This document shows positions 1 to 19,426 of a stretch of 20,828 nucleotides of DNA, one piece after another; the stretch's first letter is position 1, and each line of letters begins with the position of its first letter. Both the position numbers and the translations under genes were made by a program. The DNA comes from a virus (Duplodnaviria > Heunggongvirae > Uroviricota > Caudoviricetes): positions 1-20,828 of IMG/VR virus record IMGVR_UViG_2531839668_000013. One strand, 5' to 3'. The notes under the pieces are model-generated. The model did not search any database. It was given only the letters and a program-made list of their open reading frames with translations, and had not been told where the DNA came from.

Positions 1-219
1 TCACATCCACATAATTTGCTGTCCTGACGGCAACGGGTGCGGCCTTACGGCATGGACTTCTCCCGGCTTCACGATGTATCGCTGTACCGACTCATAAGTG
101 ATGAACGTGGCGCTGCAATTCACGTTCTGGCACTGATGATAACGCTCTTTTGTCGTGTCAGTGATATAGCGACTTGTACGCGCATGTGCGGCATGCTGGC
201 ATAAAGGACAATGAAACAT
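1..219 (-). CDS. ogr: Ogr late-gene transcriptional activator (C4 zinc finger), 72 aa
   Basis: Translation from internal Met: MFHCPLCQHAAHARTSRYITDTTKERYHQCQNVNCSATF... matches P2 Ogr family; Cys-x2-Cys...Cys-x4-Cys; start trimmed from the 97-aa ORF (ATG at 217-219). Confidence 0.9.
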   Translation of the reverse strand: MFHCPLCQHAAHARTSRYITDTTKERYHQCQNVNCSATFITYESVQRYIVKPGEVHAVRPHPLPSGQQIMWM

Positions 220-300: not shown

Positions 301-1464
301 TCACTCATAATCTTCTGTTTCGTACTCCACATCAGAAAGCCTGACCTCAAGCTCCAAGGACGTCGTGAAGCCGCTATTATTCAGAAAATGTGTCACCTTA
401 GTGATTGTCCAGTCCTGCTCGTCTATGACGCGCTTAAAGCCTGACACTCTGACCGGTGTTTCCGTGTAAATATCTGCACGACCAGTAGCCAGGATGATGG
501 AGAACTCCGCAACGCCCCGTTGCAGTTTGTCCCACTTCGCCTGAGCAGCACGCATGGCCTGTGCTTTCGTGGCATATACCGTGGTCAGGGCAAAAACGTT
601 GTCAGCCTCACCGGCCATGTATTCACCTTCGCGCGCTTCCGGTACTTTTGGCGCTTTCTTCTGCCTGACCGGTTTCGCTTTCGGGTGCTCCAGTGCGCGC
701 AGGTGTTTCTCTTTCTTTTTGCGTTTCAGTTTTACCTTCTGCTTTTGTGGCTTCGGGTCTTTGGTGTGAAGCCACTTTGCCGTTACGCCGGTATAGGCTC
801 CACGGTCAGCAATCGCAAAATGATGACGGTCACCGTCGCTGCGGGTGATGGTGACCTGCGGGATTTTTTTACCGCTGGCCGTCACCCCCTGCCCCGCTTT
901 GAGAAACAACAGTTTTCCCATTTTTACCGAGACCTCACCGCCGTTGCGTTCTGCAAGACGGGTCAGGAATTTCGCATCAGACTCCTGCGACTGGTCGATG
1001 TGCGGGATTTTAATTCCTGCCAGTGACGGCGCGACACTGGCTTCCAGCCTGTTACGGGAGGCTATCGCCTCAACAATCGCACCGAGCGTGGTGTCATGCC
1101 AGGAGCCTTCCCGGCGGGAATTGAGCGTCCCGCGAAAATCTGCACTCCGGGCGCGGATGGTAACCACATCCGGCGCGCCCCGGTGTTCAACCTCATCAAC
1201 GGTAAATTTCCCTTTGCATACCAGGGCAAAACCTTTCCAGCCGATATACACCGTCAGGACAGCGCCACGAACCGGCAGCCCGACCTGCCCGTCAGCATCG
1301 TTCAGTTCAATATCAAGCTGGTCAGCCTCAAAGCCCCTGTTATCCGTCAGGGTCATACTCATCAGACGGTCGCTGATATTGCCGGTAATATCCCTGCTGT
1401 CGAGCATCAGCATGTAATCCGGCGTCAGCGTACTGCCTGCATCAAATGTCAGCGCATCCAGCAT
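301..1464 (-). CDS. D: Tail protein D (late control gene D), 387 aa
   Basis: Full-length ORF of P2 gpD size, lysine-rich central linker, position between U and ogr; start overlaps U stop (ATGA). Confidence 0.85.
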   Translation of the reverse strand: MLDALTFDAGSTLTPDYMLMLDSRDITGNISDRLMSMTLTDNRGFEADQLDIELNDADGQVGLPVRGAVLTVYIGWKGFALVCKGKFTVDEVEHRGAPDVVTIRARSADFRGTLNSRREGSWHDTTLGAIVEAIASRNRLEASVAPSLAGIKIPHIDQSQESDAKFLTRLAERNGGEVSVKMGKLLFLKAGQGVTASGKKIPQVTITRSDGDRHHFAIADRGAYTGVTAKWLHTKDPKPQKQKVKLKRKKKEKHLRALEHPKAKPVRQKKAPKVPEAREGEYMAGEADNVFALTTVYATKAQAMRAAQAKWDKLQRGVAEFSIILATGRADIYTETPVRVSGFKRVIDEQDWTITKVTHFLNNSGFTTSLELEVRLSDVEYETEDYE

Positions 1465-1943
1465 TATCCCGCCCCCGTCATACCCGTGAATTTAGTCGCC
1501 AGACTGCCAGCCTTACCGATGAGCGATTCCGCCTGTTTACCGATATCGCCATAAAGCGCGGCCAGTGATTCATCAACGCGGGTGAGCGACAGCGTAAAAT
1601 CAATTTTTCGGGGTGTGCCGTCTGCAAAGAAAATACTCCCTGTTTCACTCACCCTGCTGATGACATACATGCCGTAAATCATGCCGGTGCCATCCAGCAA
1701 CGGCCACGCCCGACCTTCCTCTGCCATCAGCCTGAGCGTAGTCATCGTCAGCTTTCCGCCGGTCAGCTCGGGATAAAGCACACCGGCAAGCGTGATGTTT
1801 TCCTCGCCAACACCGAGAAACTGAAAGGCATCCCGTTTACCGATACGGGAATTTGACGGCCAGCGATAATCTGATTCACGCTGCATGGTCTGGTGTGGCA
1901 GCGTCTGGCGCATAAAAACAAACATACCTAACGCTAGCATCAT
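1464..1943 (-). CDS. U: Tail protein U, 159 aa
   Basis: Size and position (between T and D) as in P2; recalled similarity to gpU. Confidence 0.85.
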   Translation of the reverse strand: MMLALGMFVFMRQTLPHQTMQRESDYRWPSNSRIGKRDAFQFLGVGEENITLAGVLYPELTGGKLTMTTLRLMAEEGRAWPLLDGTGMIYGMYVISRVSETGSIFFADGTPRKIDFTLSLTRVDESLAALYGDIGKQAESLIGKAGSLATKFTGMTGAG

Positions 1944-1957: not shown

Positions 1958-4396
1958 TTAACCGTCATGCATCATGCTGGCACGGGCGCGCGCACGTTTA
2001 TCCCGCTCGTATTTTTCGAGCGCATCCTGTAACTGGCGGTCAAGCTGTGTCCCCGGCGCAGTACTCCCCGTCAGGTTGATGTGATATTCGTTTTTACTCT
2101 GGTCTACATAAGAGCGGCCAGCCGGTGCCGTGACCGGCTGATAGCCTGCATAAGAGCTGGTCGCCGGAATATAACCACCGCTGCCATACGTGGCGGCTTG
2201 AGTTCTGGCGGCGGTCTGGTCAAGTGTGTCTGACTCTTTGTTGATAACACCGAGTTTTTCCAGTACCCAGTCAATACCGCTGCGCAGTTTGTTGAACGCA
2301 TTAAGCGGCAGCATCAGCGCGTCAGCCAGTGCCTGCCCGAACATGACCCCCGTGTCACGGCAACTGTTCAGGGTGTCCTGAGTGGCTTTGACCGGGGCAA
2401 TCAGGTTTTTAAACCACTGCCACGCGGCCTGTAACTTTTCACCCAGCCAGTCAAACACCGGCTTAAGTGGCGTGAACAGTTCCCCCACCGGCGCAAATGC
2501 CACTTTCAGCCCTTCCACCACACCGCCAAAGAATGCGCTGACAGGCTCCCAGTATTTACGGATAAGCAACGCCCCGGCGACAATTGCGGCCACCACGGCC
2601 ACAACAGGCCAGCTAATAGCCCCGATGGCGGTCATAACAGCACTGCCAACCGTCGTGAAGACTGCCCCCATTGCGCCTGCTGCCGCGATGATGACATTGA
2701 TGCCGGTGATAACCGGCCAGGCTACGAGGCCAATGGCACCGATGATGCCAGTCAGCGCCAGCGCGCCACCGGCAATGATGCCGATGGTTGACGCCAGTGA
2801 TTTGTTTTTCTGGATCCAGCCGTCGAGTTTTAACACATACTTTGTGGCCGTCTGCGTGAGCTTACGCAGCGCGCCTTCCTGCTGGTCAAACAGGTCAGTC
2901 CCCACTGCCTCATAAGCGGACTGAAACTCTTTAAAGTCACCGCCTAGGTTGTCCTGCATGATATTTACCAGCTCGGCGGTCTTCCCGTCTGAGGCTTTAA
3001 ACGCAGCGGTCAGTTTGTCCAGCTTTCCGGTTGAGGCGGCAGTCATCAGCACGGCGGCGGCTGAGCTGGCCTCCTCCCCGAAAATAGTTTTCATGTATTC
3101 AGCCTGCTGGGCAGTACCGAGCCGGTTTTTCTCAAAACTGGCCTGCATTTCTTTCAGAATGGTAAATATTGGCCGGGTGTTTCCCTTGCTGTCTGAGGTT
3201 TTCACTCCAAGCTCTTTGAGTGCATCCCATGCTTTTCCCGTCGGTGCCTGCAGGCGGCTTAACACGGCACGGCTTCCCGTCCCCGCCATTGAGCCTGTGA
3301 TTTTTGCATCATGCAGCGCCCCGACCATTGCGGCGGTTTCTTCAATGCTGACACCGGCATTTTTTGCCACAGGTGCGGCATAGATCAGCGCATCGCTCAT
3401 GCCGTCAAAATCGGCGGCGGTTTTGTTCATCGTCATGGAGAGAACATCCCCGATATGAGCGACCTTATCGTTTGAAAGCTGAAAGGCGGATTTCATCCCC
3501 ATCAGCAGGGCGGCGTTTTCTTCCATCGTGCGGCGGTTCGCCAGCGCCATGTTCAGCGTGACCGGCGTTGCCGCCTGAATGGCATCAACATCCCCACCGG
3601 CTTTCGCAATAATAATCTGCGCACCGGCCGCATCATCCGCCGAGGCTGCGGTATTGTCGCCGAGCTGGCGCGCCTGCTTGCGGAGTGCGGTCATTTCGGC
3701 GGAGTCTTTTGCCACTCCTAGCACGGCCTGCAATTCTGAGTTTTTCTGCGCAAACTCATAACCGGGCATCAGCAGCTTAACTCCGGCCATCGTTCCCGCC
3801 GCCGCAATCCCCACACCGGCAGCGCCCACTGAGGCCATATTTCCGGCCAGTTCCTTTCCGGCCTGATAACGCTGTTTTACTGCGTTAAGTTTTGCCTGTT
3901 GCGCACTGACACGCGCCAGTGCGTCGCGCTGACGATTAAGCTGTGCGGTGGTTTCACTGATACGGTTTTTCAGCCCCTGCTCATCATGTGCAAGATTGCG
4001 GGTATTAATTCCCACAGCGGCCAGTTCCCGCTGCTGGCGTTTAACGGAATCCGTCAGGCGGTTATATTTCGCCTGTAAGTCCTCCGCCGCTCGCTTTGCT
4101 GATTCCAGCACTTTCGCCTGAGCACGGGTCGGACGTTCGGTGTTTTTAAACTGTGTGGCAAGGGCTTCGGCCTCCTGCCGTGCCTTTTCAAGTGCATGAC
4201 CAGTCACGGCGAGCTGTGCACTGGTCTTGCGGAATCCCTCAATACGGGATGCGTGACCGTTCAGCTCGCGCAGTGATTTTTGTGTTTCCCGGATATCCCC
4301 CGACAGCGACTTACTCGCTGTGCGGATGGATTTAAACGGGCGGGATGCCTGGTCAACAGCCCTGAGCAATACCTGTAATTTTACATTGTTACTCAT
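1958..4396 (-). CDS. T: Tail tape measure protein T, 812 aa
   Basis: Long Ala/Gly-rich ORF with coiled-coil N-terminal region and hydrophobic glycine-zipper central segment; P2 gpT position and size. Confidence 0.9.
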   Translation of the reverse strand: MSNNVKLQVLLRAVDQASRPFKSIRTASKSLSGDIRETQKSLRELNGHASRIEGFRKTSAQLAVTGHALEKARQEAEALATQFKNTERPTRAQAKVLESAKRAAEDLQAKYNRLTDSVKRQQRELAAVGINTRNLAHDEQGLKNRISETTAQLNRQRDALARVSAQQAKLNAVKQRYQAGKELAGNMASVGAAGVGIAAAGTMAGVKLLMPGYEFAQKNSELQAVLGVAKDSAEMTALRKQARQLGDNTAASADDAAGAQIIIAKAGGDVDAIQAATPVTLNMALANRRTMEENAALLMGMKSAFQLSNDKVAHIGDVLSMTMNKTAADFDGMSDALIYAAPVAKNAGVSIEETAAMVGALHDAKITGSMAGTGSRAVLSRLQAPTGKAWDALKELGVKTSDSKGNTRPIFTILKEMQASFEKNRLGTAQQAEYMKTIFGEEASSAAAVLMTAASTGKLDKLTAAFKASDGKTAELVNIMQDNLGGDFKEFQSAYEAVGTDLFDQQEGALRKLTQTATKYVLKLDGWIQKNKSLASTIGIIAGGALALTGIIGAIGLVAWPVITGINVIIAAAGAMGAVFTTVGSAVMTAIGAISWPVVAVVAAIVAGALLIRKYWEPVSAFFGGVVEGLKVAFAPVGELFTPLKPVFDWLGEKLQAAWQWFKNLIAPVKATQDTLNSCRDTGVMFGQALADALMLPLNAFNKLRSGIDWVLEKLGVINKESDTLDQTAARTQAATYGSGGYIPATSSYAGYQPVTAPAGRSYVDQSKNEYHINLTGSTAPGTQLDRQLQDALEKYERDKRARARASMMHDG

Positions 4397-4741
4397 TCGT
4401 GTTTCCGCTTCGCCGGAGCGCCTTTTCGCGCCATGTGATGAGTTCGGTCAGGCTCATGGGATACAGTTCTGATGGCGGCCAGTGAAATATCACTGCCACA
4501 TCCGCCATCAGGTCATCGACCGAGAGATTTTTTGGAAACGTCACTGCACCGAGTTCGGCGACAAAAAACCGACCACCTTACCGGCCAGCGCCACAAGGTC
4601 AGGCAGTTCCAGCGCGGCGACTTCCTGCTCGGTCAGCATCGGTGCCGTCATGCGCGGCAGCACCTTAATCAGTGCATCGACTTCGGAGTTTGCAACCGCA
4701 GCCAGACTGACACCGCGTAGCGTCCCGGCATTGGGTTTCAT
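4389..4741 (-). CDS. E+E': E+E' tail assembly chaperone, produced by programmed -1 ribosomal frameshift at 4562-4568
   Basis: Hand translation of the -1 frame after the slip site gives an open extension (...VAELGAVTFPKNLSVDDLMADVAVIFHWPPSELYPMSLTELITWREKAARRSGNTNE*) ending at TAA 4389-4391, overlapping the T start, as in P2. Confidence 0.7.
4541..4741 (-). CDS. E: Tail assembly chaperone E (zero-frame product; probably N-terminally truncated by an upstream deletion junction)
   Basis: 66-aa ORF ending ...GFLSPNSVQ; slippery heptamer at its 3' end; open frame extends 22 codons upstream without an ATG. Confidence 0.7.
   Translation of the reverse strand: MKPNAGTLRGVSLAAVANSEVDALIKVLPRMTAPMLTEQEVAALELPDLVALAGKVVGFLSPNSVQ
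4562..4568 (-). other. Slippery heptamer T-TTT-TTG for the E/E' -1 frameshift
   Basis: Minus strand reads GGTTTTTTGTCG across codons G-F-L of E (plus strand caaaaaa). Confidence 0.75.
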
Positions 4742-5313
4742 CAGCGTGACCTGTTCGATAACCTGCTCACCACGTTTGACCGGATTTTGCCGCCGCTGTC
4801 GCCGGGGTGTTTATGGGTATGCAGTACTTTACCGTTTGATGAAAGTTCACCGCCGGTGTGTTCAATGTTGCCGCGCATCGTCCCGCCCTTCTGCACTTCC
4901 AGCGTGCCGGTAATCAGCCTGTTGGTGCAGACCACCTCCGGTGTGTCCAGGGTGACGCGGGTTGATGCTTTCACCATGACCACCGGCACCGTGGCAGTAA
5001 CAGAATCAGAAGCCGTCACGCTGGCCGTTTTAATTCCGCTTACCGTGAGTGCACTGGTTTCAGGTTCATACTCAATCACCGCCCCGTCAGGGAAACGGAT
5101 ATGCAGGGCATCCGCCGACGCCGACGGCGCGGGGTTATCGGCACTTAAATCGCCGTTCGTCTGCGGGTCACTGCCCGGCATCGGGCAAAGACTCACTTTC
5201 GGGCAGGCGTTGTGGACAATCACTGGCGTCGGTGCAGGCGGGGCGCTGGTGCAACCGGCGCACAGCATCAGGCAGGTCAGCGCCATACCAGCGGCGGAAA
5301 TCTTCGTTTTCAT
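4741..5313 (-). CDS. lysC: In-frame fusion ORF: Rz1-like o-spanin lipoprotein LysC N-terminus joined to a C-terminal fragment of baseplate spike V
   Basis: From internal Met: MKTKISAAGMALTCLMLCAGC (signal peptide plus lipobox) and Pro-rich segment, then ...SADALHIRFPDGAVIEYEPETSALTVSG...VLHTHKHPGDSGG (gpV-like with HxH apex motif); starts inside lysB in another frame; stop overlaps E ATG. Confidence 0.65.
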   Translation of the reverse strand: MKTKISAAGMALTCLMLCAGCTSAPPAPTPVIVHNACPKVSLCPMPGSDPQTNGDLSADNPAPSASADALHIRFPDGAVIEYEPETSALTVSGIKTASVTASDSVTATVPVVMVKASTRVTLDTPEVVCTNRLITGTLEVQKGGTMRGNIEHTGGELSSNGKVLHTHKHPGDSGGKIRSNVVSRLSNRSR

Positions 5314-5593
5314 TGAGTAATCTCGTGATGGTTTTCTCGCGCTGAGCTTCACGCTTCGCGGCGTTTTCCAGTTCCTGACGCAGTGCCACCTGCGCCAGCT
5401 CGTTTTTGTCTGCCCTGGTGAGCGCAACATGAAGCTGATTTTTCAGCATGGTGATGGTCGCCTGTTGCTCGCTGGCTACGTTGTTTGCCCTGTCCAGTGA
5501 GGTGCGCAGGCTGGCGTTTTTATGCTTCGCCAGAAACAGACCCGCCACCGCCAGCGATAACAACACGACCAGCACAATCATCAGCCTTGACAT
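5168..5593 (-). CDS. lysB: LysB, Rz-like i-spanin, 141 aa
   Basis: N-terminal transmembrane segment plus coiled-coil periplasmic domain; contains the lysC start in an alternate frame; P2 position. Confidence 0.85.
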   Translation of the reverse strand: MSRLMIVLVVLLSLAVAGLFLAKHKNASLRTSLDRANNVASEQQATITMLKNQLHVALTRADKNELAQVALRQELENAAKREAQREKTITRLLNENEDFRRWYGADLPDAVRRLHQRPACTDASDCPQRLPESESLPDAGQ

Positions 5594-6802: not shown

Positions 6803-7006
6803 TTACTCCCACAGATTGACAGTTTCAGCCACGGGCGCGGTCTGAACGTCGGGCAGTTCGACGGCGGTGCCGTGTGGCAGCACCGCACCCAGTTCAGCCA
6901 GTCCCGGATTTGCGGCGAGCACGGTCTCAACCACGCCCTCAGTGCGCCCGTAATACCGGACACAGATGGCGTCGAGCGTGTCGCCCTGTAGCGCAAAGGT
7001 CTTCAT
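6803..7006 (-). CDS. X: Tail protein X (LysM-like), 67 aa
   Basis: MKTFALQGDTLDAICVRYYGRTEGVV... P2 gpX-like; start trimmed to internal ATG 7004-7006, which overlaps the L stop. Confidence 0.8.
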   Translation of the reverse strand: MKTFALQGDTLDAICVRYYGRTEGVVETVLAANPGLAELGAVLPHGTAVELPDVQTAPVAETVNLWE

Positions 7007-7515
7007 CAGATTTGACTCACGATGCAGCGCGGCTTGTCCTGGATGCGCGCCACTGCCCAGCGCATATCCCGCCACAGCTCATCAATGGTGCTGTCAATGC
7101 TGTCGGCCTTCTTGTCGCCTTTCGCACTGGCATCCACGCCGCGATAACGCTCATAAAGCGATGCGGTTGCCATCGCACACACGGCGCGCTCGTAGTAAAA
7201 AACTTTGATGCTTTCACCGTCGATGTCGTCCGCCGGGACGTCCGCCAGACGCGTAAAACCGGCAGCAATTTTCTGTTCGCGGTACTCGTACAGCTCCGCA
7301 TTCGTCTCCGCCATGCCTGACTTGATGGCCTCACGCAGACGGGCGGGGGCGACGGTCTGCTCAAGGCGCATACGTTCCCGGACGCGCTTCGGGTCGATAT
7401 CGGGAAAAAAGAACGTGTTTTTAATCACCGGCTCGTCGCCTGCCGGTTGCGGGATGACCACCGTACCCTCACCGGACACGGGAGCCTCCTTTCGCGGAAT
7501 AATCAGCGTCATCAT
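7006..7515 (-). CDS. L: Head completion/stabilisation protein L, 169 aa
   Basis: MMTLIIPRKEAPVSGEG... P2 gpL-like; start trimmed from the 189-aa ORF. Confidence 0.8.
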   Translation of the reverse strand: MMTLIIPRKEAPVSGEGTVVIPQPAGDEPVIKNTFFFPDIDPKRVRERMRLEQTVAPARLREAIKSGMAETNAELYEYREQKIAAGFTRLADVPADDIDGESIKVFYYERAVCAMATASLYERYRGVDASAKGDKKADSIDSTIDELWRDMRWAVARIQDKPRCIVSQI

Positions 7516-7614
7516 GACTACCTCTGAAAAGTCGGGCGGTGGACGCCGGTGCAGTGTCAGGTGATTCACCCTCACTGACCGGCGTGCCGCCCTGGCGCGG
7601 GGCGCATTCGGTTG

Positions 7615-8358
7615 TTAACTGGCTTTCTTTTTCGGGCGTCCACGTTTTGCCGGTGTCACGCTCCGGGTCTTACGCGGGGCGCGGGTGGCCGCTTTGGGTT
7701 GCGGCTCCGGCTTCGGTTTCAGCTCCCGCTCCAGTCGTTCAATCTCTTTTTTGACGCCTGCCTGACAGTCGAGCTGTGTCGCACGTTGCAGGTGAGCCAG
7801 CGCACCGGCGGCATCACCACCGTCACGCAGAAACAGACCGGTGATTTTGTGCAGCTTTGCGCGCACTTCATCAGGCATGTCAGCAGCGGCAGTCAGTTCA
7901 AGGGTCTCCGTCAGCAGGCGGGTATCCACAGACTCACCGGCCGCGTGGGCGCGCATGGCCGCAAGCGCCACCTCCTCGGTGAACATGTACGGCGGGGTGC
8001 GGCGGTGTTTACCCGGCATGGTCAGACCGTATTTCAGGGCATAACGGGCAATCTCCAGCGCACCGGCAATATCGCCGGTATCCAGACGCCACAGCATGAC
8101 CGTCATCAGAATGTCATCCTGTGCGCCTTTGCCCTGCTCCAGCACGCCGTTCACCCACGGCAACCAGAACGGCAGCAGTTCGCGCTTTTTCGCGGCCTTC
8201 AGCTCTTTTGAATAAATCGCTTTCAGTGTGCGCTGGTCTGCGGCGAGCTTAACCAGCATCTGCTCATAGACAGTTGCATGTCGCAGCGGGGCGGCTTCCC
8301 GCTGCGCGGTCATCGCTGCCGAGACCCGCATCATGTGGCGCTGTGCGGGACTCGTCAT
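7615..8358 (-). CDS. M: Terminase endonuclease (small) subunit M, 247 aa
   Basis: P2 gpM size and position; basic C-terminal tail. Confidence 0.85.
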   Translation of the reverse strand: MTSPAQRHMMRVSAAMTAQREAAPLRHATVYEQMLVKLAADQRTLKAIYSKELKAAKKRELLPFWLPWVNGVLEQGKGAQDDILMTVMLWRLDTGDIAGALEIARYALKYGLTMPGKHRRTPPYMFTEEVALAAMRAHAAGESVDTRLLTETLELTAAADMPDEVRAKLHKITGLFLRDGGDAAGALAHLQRATQLDCQAGVKKEIERLERELKPKPEPQPKAATRAPRKTRSVTPAKRGRPKKKAS

Positions 8359-8361
8359 CGG

Positions 8362-9435
8362 TTACGCTCCCGGCTCTGCGGTCGCCTTAGCCGGTGTGGA
8401 GAAATCACCGACCTTAATTTTTTCCACCAGACAACCGGCGGCGTAGTCCTCCACCACGTAATCAATGTTCATTGACTCGTAGTTCTCCACGCGGTCGAGT
8501 TTCGGGTTTTCCTCAATCACGCGGCGATGGCTGTCATCCATGTAGTAGATGGACAGGTTTTCCAGCTTCGTGATGAGCATCGCATCCGCCGGGAAGTACG
8601 GGACGCGTACCGCTGGCAGGTTGCCGATGCGTTTCTGGCTGATGATGACGTCAGCGGCCAGCATTTCGCTGTTGTCCTGCTCCTTGTTGACGATGGGAAA
8701 ATACTTGTCCGCCAGTAGCTGACGCCCCACAATCACCACAAGGTCAGGGTCTTCCTGATACCACGGTTCAATCAGGTTGTTGGTCGCATCCATCACCAGT
8801 GCATCAAGGCTGGCATAATCACCGCCCTTACCCACGCGGATGACCTCAGAGGTGGTGTGCCCTTCCTCGTCAGTGACCTTGCTCATCACGCGCGCCGGGG
8901 CTTCATTGCGGTATTTCTGCAGCCAGCCGACCGCCACATCCTGCAGCATCGGATTGCTGCTGCGGTCAGAGGTTTCGGCACGCTTCACGCCGTTAAAACC
9001 GGCCATGATGAAATCAAGGGACTGACGTTTGATAATGGCGTTACGGACACGGAGCTGGAAATCCTGATAACGCGCCCACAGGTCAAGCGTTTTGTAGCGG
9101 ATATAAAAATCGAAGTTAATCTGGTCGCATTCGTACTTGTTTGACGCCAGCTTCGAGAAGTCCTTCGGCTGACGCTCGGTGCCACCGGCAGTGTCGGTGG
9201 TGCTGGCGATGGAGCCGGTGACACCGATACCAATTTTTTCCCCTTTCATTTCGCTGACCGGCACAATGTTGATGCGGGTCAGAAAGTCAGAAGACTCCTG
9301 CATGGTGTTCATCAGGGTCTGGGTGACCGACGGTTCAACGGTGAATTTTTTCGACACATCACCGGCGTCGATGCCGTTCAGTTCGGCAACACGGGACAGG
9401 TAGGCATTAAATTTAAAGCGGGTTTCCTGGCGCAT
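8362..9435 (-). CDS. N: Major capsid protein N, 357 aa
   Basis: P2 gpN size and position between O and M. Confidence 0.9.
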   Translation of the reverse strand: MRQETRFKFNAYLSRVAELNGIDAGDVSKKFTVEPSVTQTLMNTMQESSDFLTRINIVPVSEMKGEKIGIGVTGSIASTTDTAGGTERQPKDFSKLASNKYECDQINFDFYIRYKTLDLWARYQDFQLRVRNAIIKRQSLDFIMAGFNGVKRAETSDRSSNPMLQDVAVGWLQKYRNEAPARVMSKVTDEEGHTTSEVIRVGKGGDYASLDALVMDATNNLIEPWYQEDPDLVVIVGRQLLADKYFPIVNKEQDNSEMLAADVIISQKRIGNLPAVRVPYFPADAMLITKLENLSIYYMDDSHRRVIEENPKLDRVENYESMNIDYVVEDYAAGCLVEKIKVGDFSTPAKATAEPGA

Positions 9436-9493
9436 AGTTTTTCCTGAAATTAAGGGTTAATCGTGAAGGTTTTCCCGGACTGACTGACGCCGG

Positions 9494-10348
9494 TCAGCAG
9501 TTCGTCATCAGGGCGTCACCGCCACCGCCGGTGGCTTTACTGCGGCGCTGCTGGGTCAGACTTTCGGTGTGGTCGAGACTGTTTTTCAGGCGGGTGAATG
9601 CCTGACTGGTTTCATCCGCCCTGTCAGTCACATCCTGCTTAAGTGCGGAAAAGGCGGTTTCCATCTCAGCAAGGCGCTGCTCAGTGGCGCTCAGTTTTTC
9701 CTGCACATGCTCAGCGACAGCGGTCACCGCTTCATGCACGTCATTCAGACGGGCGTCATCGCTGGCCTGTTTGCGGCCAAAAATGGATTTCACCTTTTCG
9801 GTCAGGGCGGTGAACACGGTTTCAGGCAGGTCTTCAAATTCCAGCTCAACAGGCGTTGCCACTGAAATCAGGTTTTCAGGGCTTAATTTGAAGCGGTTCA
9901 GAGGGTTGTGTTTTGCCGTGCGGCAGAATTCCAGGTATTCCGTGCCGAGGCTTGCCGGGTCATCGGTGACGGCCAGACCCACCAGATAACATTTGCCGGT
10001 ATTGGCAAAGTTCGGCTGAATTTCCATTGAGGTATAGACCTTCTGCGCGGCCTTGTTCATCGCGATAAGGTCATCGGTCGGGGTGATTTTCGCAAACAGC
10101 GCCCATTTGCCTTTCAGCGCCGAATCATCGTCAATCTTTTCGGCCTTCAGTTCGACCACATCGCCATAACGCTTAAAAATACCGTCAGGCAGGATGCCGC
10201 GCAGATGTTCCAGGTTAATGCGGCAACCATAGACACGCGGGTCAAAGGTTTCGGCCATTTCCTGAATATCCTGCGCACTGATGACACGCCCGTCACAGGT
10301 GTCACCCTCAACGCCGATACGAAAGAATTTTGAGACTTTTTTTGCCAT
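9494..10348 (-). CDS. O: Capsid scaffolding protein O, 284 aa
   Basis: MAKKVSKFFRIGVEGDTCDG... P2 gpO-like; start trimmed to ATG at 10346-10348. Confidence 0.85.
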   Translation of the reverse strand: MAKKVSKFFRIGVEGDTCDGRVISAQDIQEMAETFDPRVYGCRINLEHLRGILPDGIFKRYGDVVELKAEKIDDDSALKGKWALFAKITPTDDLIAMNKAAQKVYTSMEIQPNFANTGKCYLVGLAVTDDPASLGTEYLEFCRTAKHNPLNRFKLSPENLISVATPVELEFEDLPETVFTALTEKVKSIFGRKQASDDARLNDVHEAVTAVAEHVQEKLSATEQRLAEMETAFSALKQDVTDRADETSQAFTRLKNSLDHTESLTQQRRSKATGGGGDALMTNC

Positions 10349-10521
10349 TGTCAGGAGTCCTGAATAGTGATTAGAGGAGTCACATGTCGGCATCAGTTTC
10401 CCGACGATGCGCATCCTCCGCCATCAGTCCCGGATGGCTTATCACTGACACAACAGCACCTTAGCGAATCGCGGGGCGCGACTCAGTAGCCTTGCCGTGT
10501 ATTCATCACGGCGAGGTATTC

Positions 10522-12294
10522 ATGACCATCACCACAGACACCACTCTTTTACACGACCCGCGTCGTCAGGCGGCGCTGCTGTACTGGCAGGGATTTTCCG
10601 TGCCGCAGATTGCCGCCATGTTGCAGATGAAACGCCCGACGGTGCAGAGCTGGAAACAGCGCGACGGCTGGGACAGCGTTGCCCCCATCAGCCGTGTCGA
10701 AATGAGTCTGGAAGCGCGGCTGACCCAGCTCATTATCAAACCGCAGAAAACCGGCGGTGACTTCAAGGAAATTGACCTGCTCGGACGCCAGATTGAACGA
10801 CTGGCACGGGTCAACCGTTACAGCCAGACCGGCAACGAGGCAGACCTTAATCCGAACGTCGCTAACCGCAACAAAGGCGGGCGGCGCAAACCGAAAAAGA
10901 ATTTTTTCAGTGACGAGGCCATCGAAAAGCTGGAGCAGATTTTCTTTGAGCAGTCTTTCGACTATCAGTTGCACTGGTATCGTGCCGGGCTTGAGCACCG
11001 CATCCGCGATATCCTGAAATCCCGCCAGATTGGCGCAACGTTTTATTTTTCCCGCGAGGCGCTGCTGCGCGCCCTGAAAACCGGCCATAACCAGATTTTT
11101 CTGTCGGCCAGTAAAACGCAGGCGTATGTGTTCCGTGAATACATCATCGCCTTTGCCCGGCTGGTTGACGTTGACCTGACCGGTGACCCGATTGTCCTGG
11201 GCAATAACGGCGCAAAACTGATTTTTCTCGGCACCAACTCCAACACCGCACAGAGCCATAACGGCGACCTGTACGTCGACGAGATTTTCTGGATCCCGAA
11301 TTTTCAGGTACTGCGTAAGGTGGCATCAGGTATGGCCTCACAGAGTCACCTGCGCTCGACCTATTTCTCCACCCCGTCCACGCTGGCGCACGACGCCTAC
11401 CCGTTCTGGTCGGGTGAACTGTTTAACCGGGGACGCGCCAGCGCCGCCGAACGCGTGGAAATCGACGTCAGTCATAACGCTCTTGCCGGTGGTCTTCTCT
11501 GTGCGGACGGCCAGTGGCGGCAGATTGTCACCATTGAGGACGCCCTGAAAGGCGGCTGCACATTGTTCGACATTGAGCAGCTCAAACGCGAAAACAGCGC
11601 CGACGATTTTAAAAACCTGTTCATGTGTGAATTTGTTGACGACAAGGCATCGGTGTTCCCGTTCGAGGAGCTGCAACGCTGCATGGTCGACACGCTGGAA
11701 GAATGGGAAGACTATGCGCCGTTTGCCGCGAATCCGTTCGGCTCCCGCCCGGTATGGATTGGTTACGACCCGTCACACCGTGGCGACAGCGCCGGATGCG
11801 TGGTACTGGCACCTCCGGTGGTGGCCGGTGGCAAATTCAGAATACTTGAGCGTCACCAGTGGAAAGGCATGGACTTTGCCACTCAGGCTGAATCTATCCG
11901 CAAACTCACCGAGAAATACAACGTCGAATACATCGGTATTGATGCCACCGGCCTCGGTGTCGGCGTGTTCCAGCTCGTGCGCTCGTTCTATCCCGCCGCA
12001 CGCGACATCCGCTACACGCCGGAAATGAAAACCGCAATGGTGCTCAAGGCAAAAGACGTTATCCGCCGTGGCTGTCTGGAATATGACGTCAGCGCCACCG
12101 ACATCACCAGCTCGTTTATGGCTATCCGCAAGACCATGACCAGCAGCGGACGCAGCGCCACCTATGAGGCCAGCCGCAGCGAGGAAGCCAGCCACGCAGA
12201 CCTCGCCTGGGCGACCATGCACGCCCTGTTAAATGAGCCACTCACCGCCGGTATCAGCACCCCGCTGACATCCACCATTCTGGAGTTTTACTGA
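10522..12294 (+). CDS. P: Terminase ATPase (large) subunit P, 590 aa
   Basis: MTITTDTTLLHDPRRQAALLYWQGFSVPQIAAM... P2 gpP-like; divergent from O; RBS gagg upstream of the trimmed start. Confidence 0.9.
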   Translation: MTITTDTTLLHDPRRQAALLYWQGFSVPQIAAMLQMKRPTVQSWKQRDGWDSVAPISRVEMSLEARLTQLIIKPQKTGGDFKEIDLLGRQIERLARVNRYSQTGNEADLNPNVANRNKGGRRKPKKNFFSDEAIEKLEQIFFEQSFDYQLHWYRAGLEHRIRDILKSRQIGATFYFSREALLRALKTGHNQIFLSASKTQAYVFREYIIAFARLVDVDLTGDPIVLGNNGAKLIFLGTNSNTAQSHNGDLYVDEIFWIPNFQVLRKVASGMASQSHLRSTYFSTPSTLAHDAYPFWSGELFNRGRASAAERVEIDVSHNALAGGLLCADGQWRQIVTIEDALKGGCTLFDIEQLKRENSADDFKNLFMCEFVDDKASVFPFEELQRCMVDTLEEWEDYAPFAANPFGSRPVWIGYDPSHRGDSAGCVVLAPPVVAGGKFRILERHQWKGMDFATQAESIRKLTEKYNVEYIGIDATGLGVGVFQLVRSFYPAARDIRYTPEMKTAMVLKAKDVIRRGCLEYDVSATDITSSFMAIRKTMTSSGRSATYEASRSEEASHADLAWATMHALLNEPLTAGISTPLTSTILEFY

Positions 12295-13328
12295 TGAGCA
12301 AGAAAAAAGGGAAAACACCGCAACCTGCGGCAAAAAAAATGACTGCCAGCGCCCCGAAAATGGAGGCATTCACCTTTGGCGAGCCGGTGCCGGTACTCGA
12401 CCGCCGTGACATTCTGGATTACGTCGAGTGCATCAGTAACGGCAGATGGTATGAGCCACCGGTCAGCTTTACCGGCCTGGCAAAAAGTCTGCGTGCTGCC
12501 GTGCATCACAGCTCGCCGATTTACGTCAAACGCAATATTCTGGCCTCGACATTTATCCCGCATCCGTGGCTTTCCCAGCAGGATTTCAGCCGCTTTGTGC
12601 TGGATTTTCTGGTGTTCGGTAATGCGTTTCTGGAAAAGCGTTACAGCACCACCGGTAAGGTCATCAGACTGGAAACCTCACCGGCAAAATATACCCGCCG
12701 TGGCGTGCAAGAGGATGTTTACTGGTGGGTGCCGTCCTTCAACGAGCCGACAGCCTTCGCGCCCGGCTCCGTGTTTCACCTGCTGGAGCCGGATATTAAT
12801 CAGGAGCTGTACGGCCTGCCGGAATATCTCAGCGCCCTTAATTCTGCCTGGCTGAATGAATCAGCCACACTGTTCCGCCGCAAGTATTACGAAAACGGCG
12901 CTCATGCCGGATACATCATGTACGTCACTGATGCCGTGCAGGATCGCAACGATATCGAAATGCTCCGCGAAAACATGGTGAAGTCGAAAGGCCGCAACAA
13001 CTTTAAAAATCTGTTTCTCTATGCCCCACAGGGGAAAGCCGACGGCATCAAAATTATCCCGCTCAGTGAAGTGGCAACGAAGGACGATTTTTTTAATATC
13101 AAAAAAGCCAGCGCCGCTGACCTGCTGGACGCGCACCGCATCCCCTTTCAGTTGATGGGCGGCAAGCCGGAGAACGTCGGGTCGCTGGGTGATATTGAGA
13201 AAGTGGCAAAGGTCTTTGTCCGCAATGAGCTTATCCCGTTACAGGACAGGATCCGCGAAATAAACGGCTGGCTCGGTCAGGAGGTCATCCGATTTAAAAA
13301 CTACTCACTGGACACTGACAACGGCTGA
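12294..13328 (+). CDS. Q: Portal (capsid vertex) protein Q, 344 aa
   Basis: P2 gpQ size and position, immediately upstream of cos; start overlaps P stop. Confidence 0.9.
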   Translation: MSKKKGKTPQPAAKKMTASAPKMEAFTFGEPVPVLDRRDILDYVECISNGRWYEPPVSFTGLAKSLRAAVHHSSPIYVKRNILASTFIPHPWLSQQDFSRFVLDFLVFGNAFLEKRYSTTGKVIRLETSPAKYTRRGVQEDVYWWVPSFNEPTAFAPGSVFHLLEPDINQELYGLPEYLSALNSAWLNESATLFRRKYYENGAHAGYIMYVTDAVQDRNDIEMLRENMVKSKGRNNFKNLFLYAPQGKADGIKIIPLSEVATKDDFFNIKKASAADLLDAHRIPFQLMGGKPENVGSLGDIEKVAKVFVRNELIPLQDRIREINGWLGQEVIRFKNYSLDTDNG

Positions 13329-13497: not shown

Positions 13498-13516
13498 GTG
13501 CTTTCCCCGCCTCGCC
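13498..13516. other. cos: cos cohesive-end site (P2 19-nt cos)
   Basis: gtgctttccccgcctcgcc is the exact reverse complement of the P2 cohesive end GGCGAGGCGGGGAAAGCAC. Confidence 0.85.
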
Positions 13517-15043: not shown

Positions 15044-17314
15044 TTAATCCACAAACCCCGGCCACTCATCAGTGACCGGATACGTGAATTTTTTCCCGCC
15101 ATAATTTACGGTTGCCCCACGCGCCAGCGCCTCAAGCTCCCATCGCTGCGGCCTGATACCGTTCTGAGCAAGGTCAACGCGGATACGGGTGATTTGCATT
15201 CGTTCCGACCGGGTCAGTCTGGCCGATGGCGCAATTTCATGTGGTTTTAACGGACTTCCGTTTCTTTGCTGACGGTTTGGCGTTCGCAGGTCGTGTTTTA
15301 ATGCGCCCCTGAGCGCCCTCACGACCTCCGGTTCATTCCATTCGATAACACCGTCATCAACCAGATTAAGCACTGCTGCGGCGTGCTCAGAAGGCGTGGG
15401 AGCCGGTAACGAAGTATCACCACCAGTGAGCTTTCCACAGTTATTGACAGGACTCCGAGGCGCGGCGATGCCGCTTTTTAAAGTCAAAGGCTCAACGACC
15501 GGCACTTTCGGAACAATGCGCCAGTCCATCGTTCTGGTGATATGAATATGACGCGCGCCGAGATGCGGCGCGTAAATGCCGACCACTCTCTCGACTTCTT
15601 CCTCGTACTCGTTAACTTCATCCGACGGACTACGGGCAACCCTGACAGTCTGACAATCGCGCGGAACATTTGCCCCACCCTGCGCGCTGATATACAACGC
15701 AAAATCACCACTGTCTGCGGCAGCGCGTGCAGCCTCGACGCGTTCGTCAAACTCATCAGCAATGCTGACGCCGCGAGGCAATTTGCGTAGTTCACGGTAA
15801 GCCCCCATTGTCGGCAGGCCAACCGTTTTAAATTGCGGAATGCGCCACGTTGACGCCCATGCGGTAACAGCCGCGGCAGTGTCTTTCAGCGGCCTGCCGG
15901 TATCGTTATCGAGCTGACCATCCAGTGCATAGCCATCGATGTTTTTTGAGATGTATTTCGCGATATATCCCGCAGCACCGCCCCGGTTAAGGTGTTTTGC
16001 CTGAAAACGGTTTCGCGCGGCTCCTCTTTCGTCACCATCCTCTTTGAGCGCATAGCGACGCATGATTTCGATAATCTGGTTACGCTGGCGTGGATTACAA
16101 AAAAGCATCATATGCCAGTGCGGCGTTCCGTCGTGGTGTGGCTCGACGACTCGCAAACCGTAGACCTGTAAATCATTATCCTTGAATGCCGTGCGCATCA
16201 GGCTCCAGATGCGGCAGAGATAACGCTGCGCATCCTTTGGATTAAATGCCTCATCATTCCAGCCGTGATTTAGCTGGACGGTTTTACTTTCGCCTTTTCC
16301 GACCTGACGTGTCGGGTGATACTTTGACGGCGCGGTCAGAGTGATAAACATCCCCACATCACCCTCTGCGGCGGCGTAACGCTCAATACCGGCGATGGTG
16401 TTCATCAGCTCCATCCGGCGAATTTCAGGATTAGAAATACTGCCCATCACCTTACTGATAAGGTCGATGCGCTCGCCGGTTTCCCTGTTTTCGAGGTCAC
16501 ACGATTTAAGAAATTCCAGATTTGCCTGGCGGCGTGCACGCACATCACGAATGGCATGTTTACTGGCATAAGGAGAACGGTCTTTATTGACCTCCCCGAC
16601 AGCAATCAGTAACGCCTCATGCCAGCGCATACGCTGGCCTTTAAGCTGATGAGTCCACCACTCATCGTTAAACAGACGGGCAATGGCAGAATATGCCTGC
16701 CTCGTGGTCATCTGTCCTTTACGGTATTTTTTCCAGTAGAGAGGGGAAATATTGAAAGCACGTGCAGCGCCAGCAACATGACCATACAGATGCGCCTGCG
16801 CCTCATCTGTAAACAGCGATTCTTTCTCGCCATGTGCATCAACCCATGCATCGCAGAGTTCCTCATACATCATGAAAAGCTGCGATGAGATACGGGCGGC
16901 AAACTTTTTCAGCTCCTTGTCATTCATCCCCGGCAGACGCGCATAATGGTCACGCTCTGCCAGAAACAGCAACGACGCGTCGGTGTTCATTTCATGGCGC
17001 TGATTCACGCGCTCAATACGCGGCCATAAACGGCGCTGAAAAGTGGATGTGAGGAAATAAAACCCGTGCACCGGGCTTTTATTGCGCCGGATGTAGTCAT
17101 AGCGTGAAGTAAACAGCGAGCGCAAAAAGTAAGGCAGGCGATTAATCGTGGATAAAACACCTTGCACCTGACGCATCTCGTCACGTGTAAGGGGTCTTTC
17201 GCGCCCGACGGCCTCGCGTGGCGCGTTCCATGCATAAGCACCGGTAAACGTCTCACCGGTGCCTGCGGCAAATGCTGACGGAGGGACAAAACGCCCGGAG
17301 GCTTTAACGGCCAT
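15044..17314 (-). CDS. A: Replication initiation protein A (rolling-circle nickase), about 756 aa
   Basis: P2 gpA-like throughout (PHWHMMLF, YIAKYISK active-site region); start trimmed to MAVKASGRF. Confidence 0.9.
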   Translation of the reverse strand: MAVKASGRFVPPSAFAAGTGETFTGAYAWNAPREAVGRERPLTRDEMRQVQGVLSTINRLPYFLRSLFTSRYDYIRRNKSPVHGFYFLTSTFQRRLWPRIERVNQRHEMNTDASLLFLAERDHYARLPGMNDKELKKFAARISSQLFMMYEELCDAWVDAHGEKESLFTDEAQAHLYGHVAGAARAFNISPLYWKKYRKGQMTTRQAYSAIARLFNDEWWTHQLKGQRMRWHEALLIAVGEVNKDRSPYASKHAIRDVRARRQANLEFLKSCDLENRETGERIDLISKVMGSISNPEIRRMELMNTIAGIERYAAAEGDVGMFITLTAPSKYHPTRQVGKGESKTVQLNHGWNDEAFNPKDAQRYLCRIWSLMRTAFKDNDLQVYGLRVVEPHHDGTPHWHMMLFCNPRQRNQIIEIMRRYALKEDGDERGAARNRFQAKHLNRGGAAGYIAKYISKNIDGYALDGQLDNDTGRPLKDTAAAVTAWASTWRIPQFKTVGLPTMGAYRELRKLPRGVSIADEFDERVEAARAAADSGDFALYISAQGGANVPRDCQTVRVARSPSDEVNEYEEEVERVVGIYAPHLGARHIHITRTMDWRIVPKVPVVEPLTLKSGIAAPRSPVNNCGKLTGGDTSLPAPTPSEHAAAVLNLVDDGVIEWNEPEVVRALRGALKHDLRTPNRQQRNGSPLKPHEIAPSARLTRSERMQITRIRVDLAQNGIRPQRWELEALARGATVNYGGKKFTYPVTDEWPGFVD

Positions 17315-17579
17315 ATGAGCCAAAAGCCTCTGAACAACGCTTGCTGAGTTGCTCAACCTGCGCGTTTAAATCAGCAAAAGACTTTGCGCTTCCGGTCAGA
17401 ATATCGTGATGCATCAGGCCGGAAACAAGCTGGCTTAATTTCGGGTAATAACCAACCACCGCCAGCCATTCCTGACCGGCGTTTTTACCGCTTTCAGCTC
17501 TCTTTTTCTCGTGGAGAATAAACTGAAAGCTGTCACTGGTAACGACATAACGTTCGCCAATTTCAATACGAATACTCAT
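17304..17579 (-). CDS. Small early-operon protein, P2 orf83-position, 91 aa
   Basis: Position immediately upstream of A; unknown function. Confidence 0.6.
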   Translation of the reverse strand: MSIRIEIGERYVVTSDSFQFILHEKKRAESGKNAGQEWLAVVGYYPKLSQLVSGLMHHDILTGSAKSFADLNAQVEQLSKRCSEAFGSYGR

Positions 17580-17800
17580 GCCGTTCTCCGGTAATGTTTG
17601 TTTTTTGCTTCAAAGACTGACTGGCAGGAAACACAACGCGTGGCTGACGGATAAGCCGCACGACGGGCAGCAGGTATTGGCGCGTCACACTCTTCGCAAA
17701 CCAGCGCAGAAACACCGCAATGCTTTACCCTTGCCGCGTTAATCTGGCGCTCCAGTAATTCAGCCTGTTGTTCCTGAATAAAATCTACGTTGTCCGGCAT
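17576..17800 (-). CDS. TraR/DksA-like C4 zinc-finger protein, 74 aa
   Basis: C-x2-C ... C-x2-C spacing (CEECDAPIPAARRAAYPSATRCVSC) typical of the TraR family; P2 orf82 position. Confidence 0.7.
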   Translation of the reverse strand: MPDNVDFIQEQQAELLERQINAARVKHCGVSALVCEECDAPIPAARRAAYPSATRCVSCQSVFEAKNKHYRRTA

Positions 17801-18105
17801 TACCAGTTCCTTTTGTCGTTAAGGTTTTTAAATTCATCAGCGCAATAGCTGGCGATTTCTGTCGTTAATTTCGTCAGTTCATCCACGGAGGAGATTTGCT
17901 TGTTAAATACAGCGCGTTTCACAAGTAAATTGACCACATCAGACAGGAGGTTTAATTCGTTCTGATAAATCGCGATAACAGACTCAGTTATTTCGCGTTT
18001 TTCTTTATCAAGACCAAGTTGAATAAGAGATAAATCGCCATTTTTCATAACGGCGATTTTTAAGGCGTTATTCAGTAATACAACTGAACGAGAACAGGAC
18101 ATCAA
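17800..18105 (-). CDS. Hypothetical AT-rich early-operon protein, 101 aa
   Basis: ORF with start and stop overlapping neighbours (ATGA junctions); noticeably AT-rich relative to flanking genes. Confidence 0.55.
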
Positions 18106-18326
18106 AGCACCTCCCCGCGAGACAATCCGATATTGTGAAATTTTTCCGACTCCTGACTGAGCAGCTCGACTATCTCCACGCGGGATAACTCCGCCTTTGT
18201 GATGTGGCGAATCATGGCGTCAAGATGAGAAGAAAAGCGCGTCGCTGCGTCGGCCTGTGCTTCGGTTCTGGCCTGTTGCAGCAGTAATGCGTATTTACCG
18301 CACTGATTTTCAGAAACTGTATGCAT
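18102..18326 (-). CDS. Small early-operon protein, P2 orf80-position, 74 aa from MHTVSENQ
   Basis: GGAG RBS 6 nt upstream of internal ATG at 18324-18326; the ORF extends to 18359. Confidence 0.55.
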
Positions 18327-18389
18327 GACTTTCTCCAGGCAAAAAGAAGCCCCGCACAATTAAGTGCGTTAAAAACTCTGGTTAATTAC

Positions 18390-19057: not shown

Positions 19058-19059
19058 AA

Positions 19060-19413: not shown

Positions 19414-19426
19414 TAACACACTCAAA

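Follow-up and report, generated by a model that had tools for sequence, protein, structure and literature searches.

Gene content of the locus

The stretch of DNA analysed here, 20,828 nucleotides in length and referred to as the window, contains a P2-like prophage of E. coli that extends from int to ogr (Table 1). The genes are collinear with the P2-type order, int-C-cox-B-A ... cos-Q-P/O-N-M-L-X-Y-K-lysA-lysB ... T-U-D-ogr. Yersinia phage L-413C aligns with the window in five collinear blocks that display 93.1-98.1% identity, and its linear genome begins and ends at what is the cos position of the window. By gene order, nucleotide identity and cos, the element is a member of the P2-like (Peduovirus-type) prophages. 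It is a defective derivative and not a viable phage, as the contractile-tail module is incomplete. The accessory region between A and cos contains no known defence system detectable by PADLOC.

Table 1. Features of the P2-like element, with positions in the window
Feature	Position	Strand	Basis
ogr, late-gene activator, intact	1..219	-	comparison with parent
D (late control D/hub family), intact	301..1464	-	comparison with parent
U, intact, carries the only SNP	1464..1943	-	comparison with parent
T, tape measure protein, 812 aa, intact	1958..4396	-	comparison with parent
E' reading frame (GpE family), intact	4389..4544	-	comparison with parent
E, 5'-truncated, codons 11-91	4541..4784	-	translation; Phage_TAC_7 profile positions 22-78 of 79
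LysC::V scar ORF, 190 aa	4741..5313	-	translation, comparison with parent LysC and V
Junction B, V codon 206/207 to E codon 11	4785..4786	-	exact match extension against parent
Retained V fragment, C-terminal beta-helix and His-rich apex (HTHKH)	4787..5135	-	identical to parent V
Junction A, lysC codon 59 to V codon 89	5136..5140	-	exact match extension from both sides against parent
lysB (Rz-like i-spanin), intact; partner LysC truncated	5168..5593	-	comparison with parent
lysA, intact	5581-6006	-	comparison with parent
Endolysin K, intact	6021-6518	-	comparison with parent
Holin Y, intact	6518-6799	-	comparison with parent
X, L, M, N, O (-); P, Q (+); head, packaging and X genes intact	6803..13328		comparison with parent
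cos, exact match to the 19-nt P2 cohesive-end sequence	13498..13516	-	sequence match
Early region: A, small orfs, B, cox (-); C, int (+)	15044..20828		identical to parent

The window is identical to contig AFAE02000014.1 of the E. coli draft assembly GCA_000194645.2 over the 15,286 bp available for comparison. E. coli O157:H16 str. 98-3133, whose genome has been completed, carries an intact parent (NZ_CP051001.1, 989576-1018863). Both prophages reside at the same chromosomal site, between cpxP and fieF, and 3 kb of flanking chromosome compared between the source strain and 98-3133 displays 0 mismatches and one 1-nt gap. RefSeq flags the H gene of the 98-3133 prophage as a pseudogene, and a parent that was itself already defective was therefore considered; this is ruled out, as H is one continuous 399-amino-acid open reading frame.

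The two prophages differ by one SNP and two deletions only. Three collinear blocks are shared, of which those of 15,693 bp and 356 bp have no mismatches and that of 4,786 bp has one. This sole SNP, at window position 1502, is nonsynonymous (L148 vs M in U). Genes for head, packaging, replication, holin, endolysin, lysA, lysB, T, U and D are otherwise identical to those of the parent. The DNA that is missing totals 8,460 bp relative to the parent and ∼9.5 kb relative to L-413C, which makes the preliminary description's estimate of roughly 10 kb a fair one. The element is ∼21.1 kb, compared with 29.6 kb for the parent, or ∼71% of parent length.

Deletions and junctions

Deletion A comprises 1,322 bp (18694-20015 of the parent locus, L002; NZ_CP051001.1 1005269-1006590) and removes the 3' end of lysC, genes R and S and V codons 1-88/89. 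The junction is at a 5-bp CGATA microhomology, around which hand alignment displays a looser lysC/V similarity of ∼20 bp. Deletion B comprises 7,138 bp (L002 20367-27504; NZ_CP051001.1 1006942-1014079) and removes V codons 207-211, genes W, J, I, H, FI and FII and E codons 1-10, together with an invertible fibre cassette and its invertase. Here the microhomology is 2 bp, AA, with CCGG offset by one base on either side. The preliminary description had proposed two deletion junctions, and both could be mapped by match extension against the parent; junction A is inside the predicted interval of 5115-5150, and junction B is ∼5 nt outside that of 4790-4812. The flanking microhomology that it suggested looking for is present at both.

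A test of the tail module finds R, S, W, J, I, H, G, FI and FII absent from the window and V and E truncated. The earlier statements that sheath, tube, baseplate and fibre genes are missing and that the element cannot build its own tail are borne out by these losses, which extend to the N-terminus of V and to fibre assembly. The remaining genes had also been described as full length. This is the case for T, U, D, the head and replication genes and the other lysis genes, but not for E and lysC, which are both truncated.

The E gene has lost its start codon, its ribosome-binding site and ten codons. The E frame is interrupted by a stop codon that precedes the junction by 8 codons, and it contains no ATG, GTG or TTG before Met26, whose ATG is at 4741. 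The fusion ORF had been thought to stop in an overlap with the start of E; the ATG in question is this internal Met26. In the source record, the truncated E gene is annotated from an ATC codon. A TTTTTTG stretch, the putative E/E' frameshift site by analogy with P2, is kept at 4562-4568, and E' can be translated only by way of the truncated E.

Both the intergenic region preceding V and that preceding FI are gone. In P2 these regions contain the late promoters PV and PF. Loss of both promoters is probable from their position in P2 and not from a motif match. The candidate Ogr-box pattern TGT-N12-ACA has no match anywhere inside the prophage, and TGT-N10-ACA, which is present upstream of V, is the only near-pattern there. 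Expression of the lysC/V fusion and of E'-T-U-D would then occur only via read-through from the O operon.

The LysC-V fusion

Junction A fuses lysC and V in frame, as had been noted. The mechanically defined open reading frame spans 4741-5430 on the minus strand, but its upstream extension to 5430 lies in frame overlapping lysB, and the LysC start is the ATG at 5313. Residues 1-59 of the translated protein are identical to parent LysC and residues 60-176 correspond to gpV 90-206; the final 14 residues (IRSNVVSRLSNRSR) represent E sequence read out of frame, followed by a stop. Including the junctions, the retained V segment is 356 bp (window 4785-5140) and is 100% identical to parent V nt 264-619.

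Homology of the V-like segment to gpV, proposed earlier, is upheld by the structure of P2 gpV, 3QR8, which matches over chain residues 84-207 (E = 4e-71), and by the Pfam family Phage_spike (PF18715; 98.5 bits). This part of gpV has also been crystallised separately, and the resulting structures 3AQJ and 3QR7 align with residues 57-177 and 67-177 of the query, respectively. The N-terminal part matches Pfam LysC (PF23793) with 30.1 bits (cut-off 27), at profile positions 1-47 of 69. Pfam finds no match to PF04717, the N-terminal OB-fold, in the fusion protein, whereas full-length V proteins carry it. The fusion lacks the OB-fold domain, by which the spike is expected to attach to the hub, as well as the 5 C-terminal residues of gpV. 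On the lysC side, the last 37 of 96 codons are replaced by gpV sequence; in spanins, it is the C-terminal part of LysC that contacts the i-spanin LysB. Residues 1-59 include the stretch LMLCAGC, which we take to be a putative lipoprotein signal from what is known of Rz1-type spanins.

Two NCBI entries represent the fusion protein, WP_248698635.1 and WP_349145916.1, both named 'Rz1-like lysis system protein LysC'. The pair of prophages also illustrates how annotation pipelines name such a scar, in that a chimera of LysC and spike is called simply LysC. In the whole protein collection the fusion cluster consists of two sequences that differ only in start site (175 and 181 amino acids). The 181-amino-acid version leads to the source contig only and the 175-amino-acid version to none. 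Exact look-up of the 229- and 190-amino-acid versions in the same collection gave no entry; other start sites only are represented.

Recurrence of the breakpoint in gene V

In two unrelated assemblies, deletions have an endpoint no more than 5 nt from this same point in V. The independently assembled read sets of two loci, L004 and L005, contain junctions of this type. L004 is an unrelated element in which a C-terminal fragment of V is likewise retained between two deletions. It has lost the sheath, tube and baseplate genes and kept the head genes, and it also lacks the 3' end of the endolysin gene and lysA, lysB and lysC.

Two other in-frame fusions begin V at the same point as the fusion described here. 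It might be supposed that the LysC-V protein is itself selected, for example as a lipoprotein anchored in the outer membrane, where the trimeric spike tip on display would act as a decoy or in exclusion. In favour of this, the reading frame is maintained across the junction, LysC residues 1-59 with the putative signal are present, and the gpV portion coincides almost exactly with the separately crystallised one. However, the other fusions came from a protein search, and their in-frame status is an ascertainment effect of that search. The fusion partners (LysC, endolysin K and an ORF antisense to P) are unrelated, the protein lacks the end of gpV and terminates in frameshifted residues, and it is confined to one strain. 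It is also a late gene product, and its expression is limited to cells on the verge of lysis. Selection for the fusion is extremely unlikely, and the LysC-V protein appears to be an accidental by-product.

In absolute terms the V breakpoint is rarely used, as seen from a census. None of 119 V-containing IMG/VR loci has a break inside V, and a pattern with non-native bases upstream of the breakpoint has no match in IMG/VR or in JGI metagenomes. In all 1,557 of 1,557 matching complete-genome records, at least 80% of a 120-nt window centred on the breakpoint is covered. A hairpin at the site was considered and is not supported: in single-strand DNA folding around all four breakpoints, z ranges from -1.85 to +0.78, with no sign of unusual structure and with values for the V site of -0.06 and -0.32 (two strands, 76-nt window) and -1.28 (31-nt sub-window).

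Three independent deletions that end within 5 nt in V are the only surprise in these data. If upheld by a proper census, the pattern would point to a local fragile site in a very common prophage family. One could speculate that V codons 88-91 (CGGCGATA|ACCCC) are fragile and that P2-like prophages break there repeatedly, giving head-proficient, tail-less derivatives that keep the C-terminal domain of the spike. Some of these, including the present element, might then not be dead remnants but satellites in the making, maintained by borrowing tails from P2-family phages in the same cell. This proposal is very doubtful.

Origin of the defective element

A survey for the same junctions, suggested earlier as a search for independent occurrences, returned none. 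Neither of them is present in GenBank phages, in plasmids or in any of 5,426 complete E. coli genomes, and the junction 23/24-mers have zero matches in IMG/VR and in GTDB representative genomes. Complete genomes also contain no single-junction intermediate, the two-junction query being covered to at most 54%. As the junctions are absent from every collection searched, the architecture points to private and very recent decay, and not to one that is conserved or selected.

Very probably, a P2-like prophage of a strain near-clonal with 98-3133 has lost 8,460 bp of its late region very recently, at two short-homology junctions. The recent date is strongly supported by the intact copy that is one SNP away at the same site with a matching chromosomal flank, and the 'recently disabled prophage' of the preliminary description is borne out. 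The loss would have occurred by illegitimate recombination at short homologies, with lysC codon 59 joined to V codon 89/90 at CGATA and V codon 206 joined to E codon 11 at AA. The two deletions could have arisen separately by slippage, or else together in a single template switch during replication that made two jumps, and the collinear 356-bp V fragment between the junctions fits both. The element would be expected to retain lysogeny and immunity, excision, replication, head formation, cos packaging and cell lysis. Repressors of the P2 type do not respond to SOS induction (PMC2669165). Without tails, it would by itself form no infective particles.

Some observations count against decay. Two deletions within 9 kb in a prophage one SNP from its intact form are a coincidence, unless they arose in a single event or were selected, and the V fragment between the two deletions of L004 is not predicted by pure chance decay. 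The deletion is also known from a single draft assembly, GCA_000194645.2. The prophage is intact in the sister strain, whose genome is finished, and the source strain may in principle carry an intact prophage of which the draft skipped two segments. Yet the junctions are at microhomologies of 5 and 2 bp in unique sequence and not at repeats of a length that would mislead an assembler, the contig that bears the element is 122 kb with normal flanks, and the independent read sets of L004 and L005 display junctions of the same type. There is only a slim chance that the deletions are an assembly artefact.

The preliminary description also raised reliance on a co-resident helper. According to this, the element would be functional: it would make its own DNA-filled heads, and its tails, together with R and S, would be supplied by a P2-family phage resident in the same cell, a lifestyle like that of the tail-stealing satellites known as capsid-forming PICIs (cf-PICIs). 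The genes for head, terminase, holin, endolysin and replication are intact, as are cos, int, cox and ogr, and the independent L004 has likewise lost sheath, tube and baseplate genes with retention of head genes. A second sheath/tube match was found in the sister genome by a sensitive 'distant' search; this second sheath-like locus is, however, without a close V homologue, as the 120-nt V-breakpoint window matches one place only in that genome. Judging from cos phages in general and from P4, which fills P2-size heads as multimers, stable packaging of a 71% genome in such a head is doubtful. Acquisition of the tails of other phages by tail-less capsids is a known strategy (bioRxiv 10.1101/2025.02.11.637232), and defective prophages of O157 can be packaged with the help of other prophages (PMC2669165). 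Against this, the present element is private to one assembly and one SNP from its parent, which leaves no time for selection and no sign of it. Collateral damage to lysC and E, and the keeping of useless T, U, D and X, are marks of an accident and not of a streamlined design, and the lysis-gene losses of L004 argue that decay recurs, not that a working design does. Helper dependence is not favoured and is very improbable.

No new biological system is revealed by the element. With decay as the preferred explanation, it offers a clean and dated view of how prophage decay begins, with parent and derivative known to the base. The pair also serves to illustrate gene loss mediated by microhomology, for which template switching is a possible route.

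Comparison with known systems

The element resembles the 98-3133 prophage in chromosomal site, gene order and all retained bases but one, and differs from it in the absence of lysC 3' end through E 5' end, the V fragment excepted. With P2 it shares an identical cos sequence. The fusion protein has the beta-helix and HxH apex of P2 gpV and the first 59 residues of the Rz1-like o-spanin LysC, but not the C-terminal 37 residues of the latter.

In gene content the element resembles the cf-PICIs, which combine capsid and packaging genes of their own with the lack of a complete tail (bioRxiv 10.1101/2025.02.11.637232). The cf-PICIs are conserved and widespread and have dedicated regulation, whereas the present element is a one-off phage deletion derivative. 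In contrast to cf-PICIs, it retains remnants of the tail module (X, the V fragment, truncated E, E', T, U and D), and the collections searched give no indication that it has spread beyond the source contig.

Defective P2 elements have been described previously (PMC13586616), and among P2-like prophages a defective example is Sp13 of E. coli O157:H7 Sakai (PMC2669165). The present element is similar to Sp13 in that morphogenetic genes are lost and those for integration, regulation and replication are kept, and both can be placed in the 'defective prophage pool' of E. coli. Sp13, however, is without most morphogenetic genes, including those for head and packaging (PMC2669165). The element described here has lost only the tail module and, at one SNP from an intact sibling, is far younger.

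Structure of the prophage and its intact parent

According to the ORF listing and similarity searches, the window is a prophage of the P2 type whose late genes lie on the minus strand. As its limits are the ogr stop codon at the start and the int stop codon at the end, it represents the prophage in its integrated form. The late and head region aligns with Yersinia phage L-413C in three collinear blocks, and a further, accessory region carries three genes (see table); none of these matched a PADLOC defence model.

A single record among 5,426 complete Escherichia coli genomes spans the whole window: NZ_CP051001.1, from O157:H16 str. 98-3133, where the intact prophage sits between cpxP and fieF. 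The match has 100.0% identity and is in three pieces across 29,288 bp; in exact comparison, the pieces of 15,693 bp and 356 bp have no mismatch and that of 4,786 bp has 1. The sole substitution, at window position 1502, is nonsynonymous and places leucine in the window and methionine in the parent at residue 148 of U. The source contig, AFAE02000014.1 (121,772 bp; draft assembly GCA_000194645.2), overlaps the window by 15,286 bp, with identity throughout, and its flank is the same, fieF-pfkA-sbp. This chromosomal flank shows 0 mismatches and one 1-nt gap relative to 98-3133 over the 3 kb that are comparable. Because window, contig, parent and flank sequences are identical or nearly so, the source strain and 98-3133 are near-clonal, and the deletion described below is very recent.

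In the parent, the invertible tail-fibre segment comprises H, a fibre-assembly gene, an inverted alternative fibre tip with its own assembly gene and a Hin/Gin-type invertase. Although RefSeq flags the parental H as a partial pseudogene, its 399-aa ORF is uninterrupted.

Coordinates of features in the window, the intact parental prophage (L002), the source contig (L003) and two other P2-like prophage loci (L004, L005)
Feature	Sequence	Position	Strand	Remark
L-413C block	window	1-4786		ogr, D, U, T, E', most of E
L-413C block	window	4780-5140		3' 360 nt of gene V
L-413C block	window	5133-13516		lysB back to Q, and genome end
P2 cohesive end	window	13498-13516		exact, 19-nt
Accessory region	window	13551-15054		between gene A and cos; without counterpart in L-413C
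143-aa protein, PHROG 2266	window	14021-14452	+	in accessory region
GNAT acetyltransferase	window	14561-14998	-	in accessory region
Small ORF, PHROG 2454	window	within 13551-15054		in accessory region
Early region	window	15054-20828		follows late/head blocks
lysC-V fusion ORF	window	4741-5313	-	
Junction A (lysC to V)	window	5136-5140		CGATA
Junction B (V to E)	window	4785-4786		AA
E as listed for source contig	window	4541-4759		
E as listed for source contig	L003	10528-10746		
Invertible tail-fibre segment	L002	22241-25635		Mu-G-like; deleted from window
K-V fragment and its two deletions	L004	10001-12688		
V breakpoint	window	5130-5145		
V breakpoint	L004	10415-10430		
V breakpoint	L005	2210-2225		
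V breakpoint	L002	20008-20016		

Deletion junctions

At junction A, exact agreement with the parent ends with ...GTGCCGATA in lysC and begins again at CGATAACCCC... in V. The crossover falls within a 5-bp sequence and 1,322 bp are gone; by hand alignment, lysC and V are loosely alike here over ~20 bp (GGCGATTTAAGTGCCGATA vs GGGGATTTATTCCGGCGATA). At junction B, V agrees with the parent as far as ...GGCGGCAAAA and E from AATCCGGTC... onward, with a 2-bp overlap, CCGG offset by one base on each side, and 7,138 bp gone. According to the parent annotation, deletion A removed lysC codons 60-96, R, S, the S-V intergenic region and V codons 1-88/89. Deletion B removed V codons 207-211, W, J, I, H, the invertible fibre cassette with its invertase, FI, FII, the region upstream of FI and E codons 1-10. 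The late promoters PV and PF presumably lay in the deleted regions upstream of V and of FI, respectively; a motif search gave no confirmation. That the junctions arose by misassembly is unlikely, as they are in unique sequence with homologies of 5 bp and 2 bp. Such short homologies at both junctions are a signature of illegitimate, slippage-type recombination.

The lysC-V fusion and the truncated genes

The fusion ORF encodes 190 amino acids from the LysC ATG at window 5313. It consists of LysC 1-59, the same as in the parent, followed by gpV 90-206 (the residue at the join is both D59 of LysC and D89 of V), and ends in 14 residues read out of frame from E before a TGA stop that overlaps the ATG at 4741. 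In its V part the ORF aligns to the P2 spike structure 3QR8 (residues 84-207, E = 4e-71) and to the separately crystallised C-terminal fragments 3AQJ and 3QR7. The Pfam hits of the ORF are Phage_spike and LysC (covering 1-47 of the 69 profile positions), with no match to the N-terminal V domain. The preliminary description, made from the sequence alone, had thus correctly read a real structural feature, a tail-gene deletion scar with a gpV homologue joined in frame to lysC. NCBI holds the protein as WP_248698635.1 and WP_349145916.1, which differ only in start site, the latter mapping to the source contig; under both accessions it is named 'Rz1-like lysis system protein LysC'. The locus shows a gene fusion hidden by annotation.

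The same description erred on the neighbouring genes. The ATG overlapped by the fusion stop, which it took for the E start, is Met26 of E; of the parental E, which starts with MNKENVITLDNPVKRGEQ..., only the part from N11 onward is left in the window, so that E/E' is not full length. Nor is every lysis gene complete, lysC being truncated. Because a stop lies 8 codons upstream of the junction and the E frame has no ATG, GTG or TTG upstream of Met26, both E and E+E' are N-terminally truncated, with loss of the ribosome-binding site. In the gene list of the source contig, E is a 72-aa protein starting at an ATC codon (window 4759).

Recurrence of the junctions

Neither junction was found in GenBank phages, complete E. 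coli genomes, PLSDB plasmids, IMG/VR or GTDB representative genomes. Parts of the query are matched by 1,700 complete E. coli records, none over 80% or more of its length; as the best query coverage is 54%, single-junction intermediates are also absent from these genomes. The deletion event is private to one lineage.

Breakpoints in V of other P2-like prophages

The protein search also returned other aberrant V proteins. P0011 joins endolysin K to V starting at P91. It comes from locus L004 (Logan assembly of SRR7411343), an unrelated P2-like prophage that occupies another chromosomal site and carries another accessory gene. A C-terminal V fragment (K::V91-211) is kept there between two deletions, one from K to V and one from W codon 28 to ~T codon 207; the endolysin 3' end, lysA, lysB, lysC, R, S, W through FII, E and the first ~206 T codons are lost. 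This arrangement was not found in complete E. coli genomes. In P0004 (locus L005, SRR10434783), an ORF antisense to P is joined to V starting at D89; the junction is at a 6-bp GATAAC, and the locus still has W, J, I and H. Three independent deletions in unrelated prophages (the window, L004 and L005) end on the V side within ~5 nt of each other, between CGGCGATA and ACCCC (V codons 88-91), and small in-frame V deletions in P0014 and P0032 end 5-20 nt downstream, as estimated from the protein sequences. Two R::V fusions from other E. coli assemblies (P0005 and P0009; 276 and 289 aa), with the R N-terminus joined to V at ~codon 9 and S removed, are further deletions in the R-S-V stretch.

The protein list reveals five or six independent fusions; that three of them share one codon position is unexpected (p ~0.01, a rough, post hoc value), and V codons 88-91 may constitute a fragile site. 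Overall, breaks at this site are rare. No V locus in IMG/VR is broken inside V (0/119), no matching complete-genome record is broken at or within 60 nt of the site (0/1,557), and a targeted breakpoint pattern had zero matches in IMG/VR or JGI metagenomes. DNA folding predicts no unusual hairpin at the site.

Origin and functional consequences

The arrangement could have arisen by one replication template-switching event with two jumps or by two successive deletions. As one SNP separates the prophage from the intact form, the V fragment is collinear and no intermediate with a single junction is known, the single event seems about as likely as the two deletions.

The genes for lysogeny, immunity, excision, replication, head assembly, cos packaging and holin-endolysin lysis are base-identical to those of the intact parent. 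Judged from its gene content, the prophage is unable to make a tail and its spanin pair is broken; the L-413C record calls lysA and lysB nonessential, with only lysis timing affected. Because terminator-like sites from lysB to D are at chance level (13 found vs 12.0 ± 3.7 expected), any expression of the fusion ORF, E', T, U and D would depend on read-through from the O operon.

In sensitive search mode, the parental sheath and tube genes have a second match in the NZ_CP051001.1 chromosome, which may represent a second set of contractile-tail genes in this lineage; in ~1,700 other E. coli records the sheath/tube match is only 60-80% identical. A helper-dependent life of the tail-less element would be consistent with such a second locus, with the documented complementation among O157 prophages (PMC2669165) and with the existence of satellites that borrow tails (bioRxiv 10.1101/2025.02.11.637232). 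It is nevertheless highly improbable here, given that the event is private and extremely young, the collateral damage to lysC and E, the useless tail remnants left behind and a genome of ~21.1 kb vs 29.6 kb in the parent. The structure reflects an ordinary decay event, very recent and private, in a prophage family that is common.
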